Source: Octopus sinensis (taxonomy: Eukaryota). From it: a DNA stretch of 64,000 nt. Positions 6,533 through 45,878 of the stretch are shown one piece after another (position 1 is the first letter of the stretch; each line of letters starts with the position of its first letter). The notes below the pieces were generated by a model. The model was not told where the DNA came from. It made no database searches and saw nothing but the letters and a program-made list of their open reading frames with translations. The stretch covers positions 71,238,001 to 71,302,000 of the forward strand of contig NC_043002.1 of the NCBI RefSeq assembly GCF_006345805.1. The letters run 5' to 3'. Both the position numbers and the translations under genes were made by a program.

Positions 6533-7803
6533 GACAATTATTCGGTAGCCATGATAAGACTCCGAGTTTCGGCTGATGAGGCGGAAACCCATGCTGCTAT
6601 CTCTTCAGTTATCGGGCCATCGAAAAAATGCTATGAAAATGACCGTTAAACAAAGGGAAATTACTGTGTGATTGACCGTTATTAAGACAAAAGAGCTATT
6701 AGAATGACCGCTAAGTAAGAGAAGGGAGTAAAGCTAATGGTGTAAAAATGTTCAAAGTATTCGCGTAAGCGCGCATGTCAATACATACACATGCCTGCCC
6801 GCACACCCACGTACATGCACCTATAAGTATATACTCATACATCCTCACTTGATACACACACATGTTAACCCACACATTCGCCAAAAACTATACATACATA
6901 CCCGCATACACGCTCGCACACACACGCACGTGCACAAAAAGGTTTCATACAAATGTTTATATACGCACATACCCGCACACACACAACCACACGCGCGCAT
7001 GAAATATTCTATATACACGTCTATATACGCACAGGAAAAATGCAGGGTGGAAGGTAGAATACAGAAAAAATGTGTGTGAAATATATATGAGCAATAAACC
7101 TATAAAACAATATCTCTATAAATGTGTAAAAATAAAGATATTAAAATTATATAAAAATATATATGAAATATAAGTAAAATGTATAGAGAGACAAAAAGCT
7201 TGTACGTGGACACTATATAGAAAGCAAGTTCTATCTGTAATCTCGAGTGGACAAAAATCGTAACAAATATTTAGCAACGCGTGGACATGTTCCGAAAAAT
7301 TCAGTTCTTGAATTTAGAAATGTGGCAGAGGTTTAAGTTGCTTTTAAAGATGAGCTATCTTTTTATATCACAAAGATCGCACTTTCCACTGCCATTGGCT
7401 AAGATCTTCCAGTAGACGTTATAACTGACACTTTTATCTTTTAAGAACCATATTTGACTAGATACTTTGCTCGTTTACCTTTTATCCCAGTGCCTGAAGC
7501 TCAAGGTGTGATTATTGAACCTACCCTTGAAATTACCGCCTTTAAGGCCGGCGTAGTTCTTCGTCGAAACCGTGTCCTTACTGGATATAGAGACCACGGT
7601 GGCTTCATAAATGATGGTCTCGTACATGCAAGCTCCATTTAGCGGGCACAAACCTTTATCCCTGCATGAACAGTTGGTTTCATATTGTGGTTTTTGTGTG
7701 TCCGAGACCATCATTTATGGTCTCTATATCCACTAAGGAGACGGTTTCGACGGTTTCGACAAATTATCCCTGCATGAACAGCTGGTTTCATATTGTGGTT
7801 TTT
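6533..7803 (-). mobile_element. Penelope-like element 3' fragment (decayed GIY-YIG endonuclease, 3' pLTR with hammerhead)
   Basis: ORF 7475..7714 reads CSCRDKGLCPLNGACMYETIIYEATV..NYAGLKGGNFKGRFNNHTLSFRH (GIY-YIG). A hammerhead motif lies at the 3' end, next to a microsatellite. Confidence 0.8.
6553..6613 (-). ncRNA. Minimal type-I hammerhead ribozyme (degenerate stem II)
   Basis: Minus strand reads gataa-CTGAAGA-g..c-GAAA-ctcgga-GTC-ttatc; stem I gataa/ttatc pairs perfectly. Confidence 0.65.
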
Positions 7804-8650
7804 CCTTATCGCATACCTTGTTGTCAGCTGGGCATGCTATATCTATGATCCAGCATAGTTTATTTCATTTCTCAATTAAGACTATGGCTGGCTTCCGATT
7901 CTTTATCTCATGGTCGCACTGAATCATAAAATCCCATAGCATCTTTGCATTTCTATCTTCGATGATGCCTTCGAGTTTGTGGTCGTACCAATTTTTTGCT
8001 CTGTCAAGTCCATACTTGTTACAAAGTGTCCAATGGACAAGCCTGGCTATATTGTCGTGGCGTCTCTTATATTCCTTCTGGGTTAGTGGTGTACGTTGGC
8101 TGGTAATATGCCATACTGCTTGACCGTTTTGTCCACAGATTCTGCACTTATCACTTTCTGATGTGCTTTCTATTCTGTATGTTATGTAGTTAGTTCTTAG
8201 TGATTGCCCTTGGGCAGCACAGATTAGAGCCTCCATTTCCGGATTTAAATCCCTTTTAGTCATCCACAGCCTTCTTTTTTCTTTGTCTATCTTATCTTCA
8301 ACATCCCTACGAAATTGACCATGCATTCTTTTCTTTACCCACATTTCTTGTATAGTGCTTTATCTTTGCATTCTTTCATCCTACACAAGCCTGCCCTTCC
8401 TAATTCTAATAATAGCGGTTCTGTGGCATCTTTTATGCTATGTTGTTTTCTTCTGCTCTAATGCTGTGTTTGCATCCCATAAATCCGCTTCCCCCTCTTT
8501 TTCTTGGTACATACAGTCTGACTGTGTCACGTTTTGGGTGGAGTTATACATATCTAGTTAGCAACTTCCTTGTCTTTCTTTCTAAATTGTTTAGCTCGTC
8601 TAATGTCCATGCAATTATCTATGTTCCATATCAAAGGAGTGAAACCACCC
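7800..8650 (-). mobile_element. R4/Dong-like non-LTR retrotransposon fragment (post-RT, CCHC, RLE start)
   Basis: ORF 7865..8344: MHGQF..EALICAAQGQSLRTNY..CRICG..HITS..YKRRHDNIARLVHW..LWDFMIQCDHEIKNRKPAIVLIEK. Flanked by (TTA)n. Confidence 0.88.
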
Positions 8651-9020
8651 TATTATTATTATTATTATTATTATTATTATTATTATTATTATTATTGTTG
8701 TTGTGTTGTTGTTGTTGTTGTTGTTTTCTCTTTATAATACATTTTTCTGGAGCTCCTGGAGCCTTGCATGCGTAACGGGAATACTACCTACAGCCTATTG
8801 TAGCATGCTATCCGTTCTTTTCACCTATCTAATACTTTCCTGATTATTCTGGTCGTGCCGCCGAGGAGGCAAACATTTTGTAACAGTTCTACCAAGCACT
8901 CTATTCCAGTTTCCTTTGTATTCCTCTTGATGCCTTCTGATACTGCTTCCAAGGAGCCAACAATAATTAGCACTGCCTTCACCTTCTTCATTTGCCATAG
9001 ATTGTTATTGTTGTTCTTGT
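8651..9020 (-). mobile_element. R4/Dong-like 3' terminus with (AAC)n(AAT)n tail
   Basis: LWQMKKVKAVLIIVGSLEAV..VELLQNVCLLGGTTRIIRKVL (RLE C-terminus), then a short UTR and a trinucleotide tail at 8651-8725. Confidence 0.75.
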
Positions 9021-10211
9021 TATCACAAGCACTATTTGTACTGACATAGGGAATTACTGGAAACATGCAAATGCTTTCGTATATCATTATGTGAAACGCG
9101 GTTACAATGAATCACGATTAAAGGATATAGCAAATGAAATAGCTAAGTTTAAATCCCACATAATTTCACACATAATTTTAGCAAAGACAATAAAATAGAT
9201 GACAGAATTTCTTTAGTGATTAACTGGCACCGACATTTCGCTGGCATTTCAAATTACAGAGGAGAACTCGACAAAATAATTCTGAAATTGGAGGAAAACA
9301 ATTTCGTTAATTTACGTCTATTTAAAATACACAAAAAAATTCGAAAGATTTCCTCCAATGCGCCCAATTTGCAGCGGATATGAATTTTGCACGGCCAAAA
9401 TTTCGGAATGGCTGGGTGGCTTTCTACTCCCCGTCGCAAAACGATCAAGTTCCTATATTCGTGATACCTTTGATTTTGTGTCTAAATCAACAACTGTTTA
9501 AAGCACTGAGGCCGTATCGAGAACTGTTTTGTTGGTAACCATGGATGTTTCTTCCTTATATCCCAATATTGACCACAATGAAGGAGTAGAAGCATGCATA
9601 GATGCCTTCGAAAAGCGGTCAAACAAAAGTATTCCATCAAATTTTCTCTGTAGATTATTGAGGTTTGTGTTAGAAAATACCACATTGAAGTTTAGACAAC
9701 GATTTTGTCACCCGATGAAGGGCTGCGCCATGGGAACCCCTATGGCAATTAATTTCGTTAATGTTTTCATAACGAAATTCCAGAAACAGTTACAGAAGAC
9801 TGTCAAAATCCTTTCATTGTCATGAACCAATACTCTGGTTACGGTTCATTGATGACGTATCTTTTGCCTGGGTAGGATCACAAGATAGTTTAATGGAATT
9901 CTTGCATTTCTGTGATTGTTATGCTAGAAACTATGGCTTTAAGTCCAACATAAAATTTACGTCTAGTTTTTCAAAACCTAGCGTTGAATTAGAAATATTG
10001 AATTTCTAAATGTCTCAAAGAGACATGAGCGGTGGTGTAACGATAGAGTGGTTGTATAATGTCAAAATAACGTGACAATCCCCTAAAGGGAATTACACCA
10101 CCGCTATATAGCCCTAGGAAGCATCGACACTTCCTGTCGGCTTTGACATATTTCCTGTGTCCTTATATTTGCAAAGGGGAGGCAAGCACCCGCACCAGCT
10201 AGGACTAATAA

Positions 10212-43680: not shown

Positions 43681-45316
43681 TATTATTGTTCTTGTGGTTA
43701 TTATTATTATTATTATTATTATTATTATTATTATTATTATTATTATGATTATTATGATTATTACAACGGAATTGAACTCCTCAAAAACACTGTTGTGCCT
43801 TACTCTTTCGTCTACATTACTTGAGATCTACACTTTGTAAAATAAGAATGTCATAAACATATTCTAATCACATATTTATAAATAGGCGAGTACCTGAATC
43901 TGACGAACATTACGGACCATAATTCCTTGTCTGTACATTCGTGAAAGTTTGTGACAGATTAGATTGCTGCTTTGCCAGGTCGTATTTCTATCTGTTTTGA
44001 CTTCATATTTTGTTAATATGCTGGCCAATATGTCTGAACTGACATGTACCACATCGTCTGTCATTGCGTTTGAATAATACTATGTCGTGTTCCTTTATTT
44101 ATATATATATATATATATATATATATATACATACCTACATTCATACATAGAAATATACACATACACATACATACAACATACACACACAAAAAGAGTGTGA
44201 CTAAATACATTCATTCCCTATGTATGTATGTATGTATGTATGTATGTATGTATGTATATGTATTTATGTATATATATATATATATATGTGTGTGTGCGTG
44301 TATATATATATATATATATATATATATATATATATATATATATATATATATACATACATACATACATTCATACATGGAGAAACACGTATATTCATACATA
44401 CACACAAAGAAAGGACGGATAGAGGAAAACACAGACCGAGTGACAAAGAGAGAGAGAGGAGGGGTGAGAGAGATGCATTAATATTTTATTTCTTCCATGA
44501 CCTCGCAAATTGATCTACTGACAGGAAATATATCAACTAGACCTATCATTTTGGGAATATGTGTGTTCCCTCGTTCTGATATTTATAAAACTGAGAAATA
44601 CAAAAAAATATTCATCCCATTTCTCTACGCTGGAATACACACATATATATTTACATAAGCACACGCTTGCATGCAGAGACGTCAACGATCATGCATGCAT
44701 ATTCTACACATGCACATCACTCTAATAATTTACATACACATAAGCAGCCTGTCTAAATGCCATATACAGATTGCTGAATGCTTATATCTACACATATACT
44801 CTTTTACTCTTTTACTTGTTTCAGTCATTTGACTGCGACTATGCTGGGGTACCGCCTTTAGTCGAGCAAATCGACACGGGCACTTATTCTTTGTAAGCCT
44901 AGTACTTAATCTATTGGTCTATTTTGCCGAAACGCTAATTTACGGGGAAGCAAACACACCAGCATCGGTTGTGAAGCGATGTTGGGGGGACAAACACACA
45001 CACACACACCACACACACACACACATATATATATATTATATATATATATATATATACATATATATATATAATATTAATTAAGGGTAGAAATTGATATTTA
45101 TCAATTAGGACCAGTGGGCTAGCATATTAAAAAAGAATCCGAAGATTAAAATATTCATATATACCAATTAAGGACTGAACACGAAAAGTGGACAGTCAAC
45201 ATGCTAGATATAGACGTCAAATCGCCATTCACCACAAAAGATTATGTTCTCAGATCAAACTCAGCACAAAACCATAGCAATAAACAAGTGAAAAATATAC
45301 GAAATAAAATAATTAC

Positions 45317-45380
45317 CCATGCACTAATTAGTTTCAGCTGTTATTTTCCGCAAGGAAAACTGCAGCCATCATCAGCATGG
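45317..45380 (-). ncRNA. Hammerhead copy with non-cleavable GTG triplet
   Basis: Same as 45815-45878 except GAAACTAATTA-GTG-catgg. Confidence 0.7.
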
Positions 45381-45814
45381 TCCGTTATAAATGTAATTTG
45401 CTGGACTAGATGCAAACACGATACCGAAATATCGCGTGCATGGAGTTCAGCCTATTACATTTGAATATATCTTTCAAATGCCTTTACTCTGGTATATATG
45501 CCTTTACTCTGGTTTACTTAATTGGTATATATGAATATTTTAATCTTCGGATTCTTTTTTAATATGCTAGACCACTGGTCCTAATTGATAAATATCAATT
45601 TCTACCCTTAATTAATTTTATATAAATAAATATGTTCTCTAACCGATAAATTGACTGCTGCTAATTATTAGCTGCAGGCTAGTTTTCTCGGGCCTCAGCG
45701 CGCCAGAGTAAAGGCATTTGAAAGATATATTCAAATGTAATAGGCTGAACTCCATGCACGCGATATTTCGGTATCGTGTTTGCATCTAGTCCGGCAAATT
45801 ACATTTATAACGGA

Positions 45815-45878
45815 CCATGCTGATGATGGCTGCAGTTTTCCTTGCGGAAAATAACAGCTGAAACTAATTAGTACATGG
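45815..45878 (+). ncRNA. Type-I hammerhead ribozyme, intact core
   Basis: ccatg-CTGATGA-tggctgcagttttccttgcggaaaataacagct-GAAA-ctaatta-GTA-catgg; palindromic stem III actaattagt; predicted cleavage after 45873. Confidence 0.85.

Follow-up and report, generated by a model that had tools for sequence, protein, structure and literature searches.

The stretch of the Octopus sinensis genome analysed here (64,000 nucleotides of contig NC_043002.1, positions 71,238,001 to 71,302,000 of assembly GCF_006345805.1; hereafter the window) carries a swarm of hammerhead ribozymes in six families of repeats, A to F. Here, I argue that they very likely represent two sorts of insertion. Families A, C and D, judged from their coding links, are 5'-truncated 3' ends of coding Penelope-like elements (PLEs) of the Hydra clade; families B, E and F are likely non-LTR (long terminal repeat) retrozymes, i.e. 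non-coding units, which would have been copied by a Hydra-clade enzyme. Because two sorts of PLE-derived insertion are present, ranging in age from old (C) to very young (F), the swarm is regarded as an ordinary accumulation of PLE debris and not as one coordinated locus.

Hammerhead motifs in the window and their conservation

All nine hammerhead sites listed in a preliminary description of the window are found at its coordinates (Table 1). Core boxes (CUGANGA, GAAA and NUH) and a closing stem I are intact in four of the nine, whose cores start at 6608(-), 16470(+), 38880(-) and 45820(+), and a single core change is seen in each of four others (both copies of B, the minus copies of C and F), in agreement with that description; the ninth, 12398(+), had been counted as a single mutant too, yet it has TAAA and both stems I and III are broken. 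Three hammerheads beyond the nine were recognised, at 11943(+), 19718(+) and 47770(-), the first of them with an intact core of the U3-A8 type.

A descriptor demanding at least three pairs in every stem returned three strict sites in the window versus a mean of 0.06 and a maximum of 1 in 200 local dinucleotide shuffles, and eight sites with one core mismatch versus a mean of 1.4 and a maximum of 5 (40 shuffles), so the motifs exceed their frequency in shuffled sequence, the benchmark that the preliminary description had named. This descriptor overlooked the cores at 6608, 12401 and 45375. A second one, which allowed U3-A8 cores and a 4-nt stem III, found four sites versus a mean of 0.56 and a maximum of 3 (200 shuffles), and thereby revealed the minimal hammerhead at 11943(+).

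The genome was then searched with every carrier, the best 40 candidates being scored and 30 loci returned per family; the window's own loci were left out of the scoring of core boxes. These are intact in 24/29 other copies of A, 23/28 of B, 7/28 of C, 27/29 of D, 27/29 of E, 28/28 of F and 18/29 of a further family, G, and the majority sequence of all seven families has an intact ribozyme. Stem I is represented by seven different sequence pairs over the families, every one complementary; this is not independent covariation, since the motifs were chosen for pairing. Within F, the G.U pair at the base of stem II is replaced by G-C in 15 of 35 insertions. An ambisense ribozyme at 6573(+) was considered and rejected: its CTGATGA has neither stem I nor stem III and is absent in the 29 other copies of family A, which points to copy-specific drift.

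By their sequence, the ribozymes of A to F are of Hydra-clade design, with a palindromic stem III of 8-11 nt, and not of the truly minimal form. Hammerheads in PLE ends, their minimal form and their cleavage as dimers have been described (PMC4209133). The window motifs share with those minimal hammerheads an extra nucleotide before stem II, a palindromic stem III and opposite-strand pairs 100-700 bp apart, and differ from them in the longer stem III palindromes. The earlier identification of Penelope-type type I hammerheads with a palindromic stem III is thus borne out, the palindromes of A and E being imperfect, while the word 'minimal' was misplaced: it suits the motif at 11937-11979(+), which had been overlooked. 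The stem III segments of A to F permit no hairpin and are predicted to pair with themselves at -6.4 to -13.9 kcal/mol, which is consistent with cleavage as dimers, as set out in PMC4209133 and in a review (PMC6765202).

The Hydra clade is defined by a C-terminal GIY-YIG domain, a CxCX5C linker and (TA)n targets (PMC8557442, section 11), and the Hydra rows of File S2 of that paper, including the octopus element Hydra-1_oBim, list Hydra-clade ribozymes. In these rows as in families A to F, stem II is bordered on either side by a base that is unpaired or only loosely paired, stem III is a palindrome of 4-5 bp, and the cut is frequently at GUA or GUU. The stem III of family A is identical to that listed for Hydra-2_aMil; compared by eye, no window ribozyme is identical to the listed Hydra-1_oBim motif.

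Families A, C and D lead into coding elements

Upstream of the ribozyme, the window translation of family A contains a GIY-YIG remnant with the CxCX5C linker and endonuclease (EN) motifs. The window copy is colinear with a locus (L191) that bears both reverse transcriptase (RT) and EN, and in 17 of 29 other EN loci the ribozyme region of A lies downstream of EN, some of these loci extending to RT. Three protein pieces of family A gave no match in Pfam; by eye, the protein resembles Hydra-1_Obim.

Family D had the look of a 1.7-kb non-coding element as long as flanks of 1.5 kb were inspected; this reading was ruled out by nine longer fetches, two of which (L262, L267) enter an EN open reading frame (ORF) with CxCX5C and one (L268) RT. 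Its coding region lies about 2.3 kb upstream of the ribozyme, leaving a 3' untranslated region (UTR) of about 2.3 kb. As D illustrates, a hammerhead repeat that seems 'ORF-less' can in fact be the long 3' UTR of a coding element. As for C, whose copies are 74-85% identical, an EN remnant (pairwise E=8e-8) in locus L109 adjoins sequence that precedes the ribozyme in other C copies; locus L106 retains a remnant of the EN tail.

RT together with a C-terminal GIY-YIG domain is therefore documented to differing degrees: in pieces of L191 for A, as EN and RT in separate loci for D, and as an EN remnant only for C. CxCX5C, CxxC and CxH are seen in translations of A and D, A having CxY for CxH, and no third Cys is visible in C. 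(TA)n targets, an inverted arm and a tail are present in A and D, and the hallmarks of the clade (CxCX5C linker, CxxC, DKT, (TA)n targets) in A, D and two near-intact relatives. By these hallmarks and by-eye likeness, in place of an RT tree, A, C and D match the Hydra clade. Similarly to A and D, the Hydra-clade elements Hydra-1_Obim, Hydra-2_Amil and Penelope-n_HM have an inverted 5'-truncated arm, a tail and a sense-strand hammerhead near the 3' end (PMC8557442).

Two relatives deserve mention. D2 (L271-L282), a sister of D, has long open frames of up to about 800 aa and an unusually long 3' UTR for the Hydra clade, about 3.6 kb, AT-rich and with internal repeats. Published Hydra elements are shorter than 3 kb (PMC8557442), a length from which D and D2 depart with AT-rich 3' UTRs that alone measure 2.3-3.6 kb; the limit of about 3 kb is described as typical of the clade, not as absolute. 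Family Y (L283-L290, e.g. L283:1412-3592) is a very young Hydra-clade PLE, organised as pLTR-ORF-pLTR (pLTR, pseudo-LTR) with a short hammerhead; open frames of 703-766 aa occur in all eight loci fetched, 727-aa frames at several of them, and Y is a candidate helper.

The preliminary description had held that most carriers lack an ORF, which does not apply to the three of six families (A, C, D) that lead upstream into PLE ORFs. It had also reported PLE remains nearby; these exist, yet the GIY-YIG remnants that were probably meant (11154-11729 and 19221-19646) are parts of families G and H, each with a minimal hammerhead of its own. Any novelty was said to vanish if every family were simply the pLTR of a catalogued autonomous PLE; judged from the coding links, this applies to half of them (A, C and D).

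Families B, E and F are non-coding units

The units of B, E and F have a low GC content (33-44%), one type I hammerhead each and a longest ATG-initiated ORF of 44-61 codons. They wrap round, in that the ribozyme is preceded by the 3' part of the unit itself. More than one unit is spanned by arms at 13/29 B loci and 21/29 E loci (L079 and L175 being left out of this map) and by 36/67 F arms, and the arm maps contain no LTR architecture. Tandems of at least two units occur at many F loci and in 5/30 E loci. The longest F array extends head to tail over 8.66 kb, about 17 units (L339-L340, G000:C1, ~190.068-190.077 Mb), and is a possible source locus. Exact 22-24-nt motifs, whose counts are lower bounds, occur 405 times in the genome for F, 295 times for E and 49 times for B, and the reversed controls gave 0. 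In the window, B is inserted into the ORF of G and flanked by an 11-bp target duplication with one mismatch.

The flanks of the families had been called unrelated. Nonetheless, E can be aligned with F over their 3' parts (z=6.3; none of 100 shuffles equally good), which identifies the two, on alignment, as distant relatives. At 43900-43960(+), a CTGACGA..GAAA with broken stems has, about 50 nt further on, a short motif that the E and F tails share; it is possibly a decayed relative of E/F.

Because D had initially looked ORF-less, additional B, E and F loci were picked by motif and fetched in order to look for ORFs (18 F, 20 E and 20 B loci, mostly with about 3.5 kb upstream, lone motifs being favoured and L338 left out). 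None of the 58 is continuous with a PLE ORF. A non-adjacent PLE-like match occurs in five of them, among these an E locus (L341) that consists of a 5.9-kb duplication and whose RT-like match is weak. These loci bear on the proposition that all six families are pLTRs or 3' fragments of autonomous PLEs, ORF-bearing copies of B, E and F having escaped sampling. The precedent of D lends it some credit, as does the fraction of copies covered (for F, about 54 regions versus 405 motif matches). However, besides the 58 unjoined loci, what precedes the ribozyme in B, E and F is the end of the same unit, up to about 17 times over in F, where coding tandems have an ORF; the proposition is accordingly held to be highly improbable. 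The expectation that some carriers are non-autonomous and use PLE machinery likely holds, on sequence grounds, for B, E and F.

In their short non-coding, low-GC units, single type I hammerhead and tandem copies these families resemble metazoan non-LTR retrozymes (PMC7229834, 10.64898/2026.07.22.740005); those of mussels have units of 350-390 bp, similar to B. Unlike the retrozymes of both reports, B shows partial tandems only. The two-armed, two-ended footprint described below, as well as cephalopod retrozymes, were not found in the available extracts of these two reports.

A shared insertion footprint and a probable single template

Insertions of F follow a strict rule. Among 36 merged regions, 27 have one arm at each of two ends, one deviates, six are one-armed and two run off the locus; the two-armed insertions have fixed 3' ends near unit positions 230 and 324 (27/28), and nearly all ends adjoin (TA)n. 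The motif-picked sample conforms to this rule in 8/9 two-armed F and 8/9 two-armed E loci, and contains no pair of arms sharing the same end in B, E or F. The same two-end rule is obeyed by the coding Hydra families in 9/9 two-armed cases. In B, E and F the paired 3' ends lie 53-94 nt apart. Short pyrimidine-rich motifs resembling CCCTAAT or CCTTAAT were noticed by eye before several paired 3' ends (E and F tails; D, D2), and are a possible priming signal.

Repeats of F differ by 0.76% within an insertion and by 1.40% between insertions, a local duplicate insertion being left out of this comparison. In 7 of 35 insertions, including that of the window, private variants recur on both arms and in each pass, in one array in 9/9 passes. 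Subfamily alleles are likewise common to both arms and almost never mixed inside one insertion. No accumulation of the 5' ends of F cDNAs is seen at the cleavage site, 3 of 67 arms ending at unit positions 55-70. The shared private variants and the lack of a pile-up together argue that the template was one sequence read repeatedly through the ribozyme, of which a circle would be the simplest reading. A 480-nt contig from one of four presumed-RNA runs wraps the 506-nt F unit; it fits a circle and tandem DNA equally and is not counted as evidence.

Motifs, family structures, fixed ends, arms and (TA)n targets could be accounted for as follows. Coding elements would be transcribed from tandems, and their GIY-YIG/RT protein, probably a dimer, would nick both strands of AT-rich DNA, namely (TA)n. 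RT/EN would prime two cDNAs at two internal sites on one RNA, and the meeting of the two cDNAs head to head would leave the truncated back-to-back arms of A, C and D. Tandem transcripts of B, E and F likely self-cleave in a dimer-dependent manner and are ligated, probably into a monomeric circle, which an enzyme of the same kind would read more than once round. A narrower proposal, that the retrozymes parasitise Hydra-clade PLEs specifically, the dimeric RT/EN priming twice, at two fixed internal sites, on one circular ribozyme RNA and rolling round in both arms, is put forward tentatively, its chances being somewhat below even.

A comparable footprint is known from the lizard element Poseidon_Ac (PMC11167929), in which RT starts at two internal sites that delimit the tail, both DNA strands are cut at AT-rich places and a dimer is predicted. 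Poseidon_Ac is a coding element whose behaviour was shown in vitro; B, E and F are non-coding, with a genomic footprint of paired ends.

Evidence to the contrary and alternative explanations

Several observations weigh against the scheme of two PLE-derived insertion sorts and a Hydra-clade helper. Concerning the ribozymes themselves, the Rfam-type check that the preliminary description had recommended did not recover them: no hammerhead model is among the best 150 of 261 matches in the window, a scan dominated by microsatellites matching microRNA models, and none appeared in three targeted scans (E<=10), which did not treat A, C and D separately. As monomers, only F is predicted to fold better than its shuffles (z=-3.6), A to E folding no better than theirs (z from -0.13 to +1.44). 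The silence of Rfam and the weak monomer folding of five of the seven motifs are what one would expect of chance matches in an AT-rich, repeat-rich window. Yet the shuffle tests were exceeded, all seven families have an intact core in their majority sequence, the position of the motifs is fixed near the 3' ends of elements and they agree with published Hydra motifs; the probability left to chance is close to nil.

The coding link of C consists of two decayed loci (L109, L106) only. With regard to the helper, the tails of B, E and F have no homology to the coding families A, D, D2, G, H and Y (four non-PLE queries were dropped from the PLE protein query set), therefore the case for a Hydra-clade helper draws solely on ribozyme design, target and footprint. 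Instead, the helper might be a PLE of Neptune/Poseidon type (G and H are examples) or a non-LTR RT of another kind: besides the lack of tail homology to the Hydra families, one may cite the abundance of G and H and the fact that two-ended insertions have been described for PLEs in general (PMC8557442, legend of Fig. 2; PMC11167929). The ribozymes of B, E and F are nevertheless of Hydra design and lack the U3-A8 core and AUAU stem of G and H; moreover, in the searches made, young long open frames were met only in Hydra families, even though the copies of G and H inspected end in simple repeats too. Such a helper is considered improbable, and a Hydra-clade enzyme is retained.

With regard to the template, private variants shared by both arms could stem from a homogeneous tandem source, from gene conversion between arms or from assembly polishing. 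Ribozyme mutants of the lizard PLE still inserted in vitro (PMC11167929), and eight of nine Xenopus retrozyme dimers remained uncleaved (10.64898/2026.07.22.740005). Furthermore, two complete same-strand B ribozymes were found in 0/49 loci, the arms measuring at most about 1.5 units; B is otherwise retrozyme-like, but lacks the two units that 10.64898/2026.07.22.740005 asks of a retrozyme.

An alternative for B, E and F as retrozymes is a linear template: tandem transcripts that stay uncleaved would be copied, circles being uninvolved, and the ribozyme would be a slow or protein-assisted passenger. That cDNAs cross the cleavage site without a pile-up of 5' ends would suit a linear template, as would the use of unprocessed RNA by the lizard PLE (PMC11167929) and the long genomic arrays available for transcription. 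What speaks for the circle is the recurrence of private variants in every pass and both arms, the near absence of mixed subfamily alleles, and the accumulation of related retrozymes as circles in coral, mussel and axolotl (PMC7229834). A linear template is regarded as rather unlikely.

Significance

Much of the above is commonplace: ribozymes of the PLE family occur in enormous numbers in the genomes of invertebrates, and an octopus Hydra-clade ribozyme has already been tabulated. Hammerheads of PLE ends, the Hydra-clade octopus ribozyme, non-LTR retrozymes and the link between PLEs and retrozymes are all in print; PLEs have been proposed as helpers of metazoan non-LTR retrozymes (PMC7229834), and retrozymes are reported to derive from PLE ends (10.64898/2026.07.22.740005). 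No description of cephalopod retrozymes was found among the papers listed in a literature search that excluded Repbase, Dfam, subscription papers and preprint species tables; the squid genome paper gives a bare count of 235 'hammerhead 1' matches.

What is added is the sorting of six families into coding and non-coding ones, and a test system of helper and parasite. In the papers cited, PLEs as the movers of retrozymes and circles as their template are only proposals. Both can now be tested in vitro, given that the non-coding units share one footprint with coding Hydra elements of the same genome and that young candidates for the helper are present. If the scheme is true, young Hydra elements beside a 98-99% identical retrozyme family would provide a helper-parasite pair for a first direct test of animal retrozyme movement.

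Features of the window and neighbouring elements

Table 1. Ribozyme-bearing elements in the window and their hammerheads, in order of position
Feature	Position	Strand	Remarks
Family A, 5'-truncated coding Hydra-clade PLE	6500..7803	-	GIY-YIG remnant ~7240-7800, 3' UTR, hammerhead near 3' end
Hammerhead A	6553..6613	-	Intact core; stem III ACUCGGAGU, imperfect palindrome
Family G, broken coding PLE	9034..12106	+	RT 9502-9825, GIY-YIG 11154-11729; interrupted by insertion B; extent from L235
Family B insertion	9989..10715	both	Back-to-back arms, 483 nt minus and 246 nt plus, of a 356-nt non-coding unit
Hammerhead B, minus arm	10212..10257	-	One core change, CCGAUGA
Hammerhead B, plus arm	10501..10546	+	One core change, CUGUUGA
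Minimal hammerhead G	11937..11979	+	Intact; U3-A8 core, 6-bp stem I, AUAU stem III; in G 3' UTR
Family C	12112..12557	both	Two short back-to-back arms from the 3' end of a coding Hydra-type PLE, old and decayed
Hammerhead C, minus arm	12242..12345	-	GAAA to GAGA
Hammerhead C, plus arm	12396..12500	+	Decayed; GAAA to TAAA, stems I and III broken too
Family D, 3' UTR piece of young coding Hydra-clade PLE	15277..17209	+	Ends with 'tail'
Short inverted arm of D	15277-15355		
Hammerhead D	16465..16530	+	Intact core; stem III ACGAUCGU
SINE-like (short interspersed element) insert splitting D	~16549-16962		
Family H, GIY-YIG remnant of another coding PLE	19221..19755	+	GIY-YIG 19221-19646, Pfam E=3.5e-4
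Decayed minimal hammerhead H	~19712-19755	+	Relatives have a U3-A8 minimal motif at the same place
Family E insertion	38755..39150	both	Non-coding unit of ~480 nt; minus arm lacking ~60 nt by deletion, plus arm of 49 nt
Hammerhead E	38831..38885	-	Intact core; stem III AUCGGUCCGAU, imperfect palindrome
Family F insertion	45058..46044	both	506-nt non-coding unit, in (TA)n; arms of 435 nt (minus, ending at unit position 322) and 528 nt (plus, ending at 230)
Hammerhead F, minus arm	45317..45380	-	Cleavage-site base changed to G (UG at cleavage site)
Hammerhead F, plus arm	45815..45878	+	Intact core; stem III ACUAAUUAGU
Family I, additional hammerhead of Hydra type	47691..47773	-	Core decayed in window copy

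Of the additional families, G is matched in Pfam by GIY-YIG (E=4e-5) and, below the cut-off, by RVT_1 (E=0.0019). The U3-A8 variant described in PMC4209133 is that of G and H. A second conserved CTGATGA of G, at 11840, lies about 100 nt upstream of its hammerhead and has no partner GAAA. The hammerhead of I is intact in most of 11 other loci.

Elsewhere in the window, fragments of RT genes of the LINE (long interspersed element) kind lie at 1021-2211, 7865-8359, 43087-43780 and 51161-54212, some with weak RVT_1 matches. Finally, a dispersed repeat at 37608-37979 contains a 184-nt tandem duplication, and inverted copies of it are located at 26341-26688 and 30884-31236.

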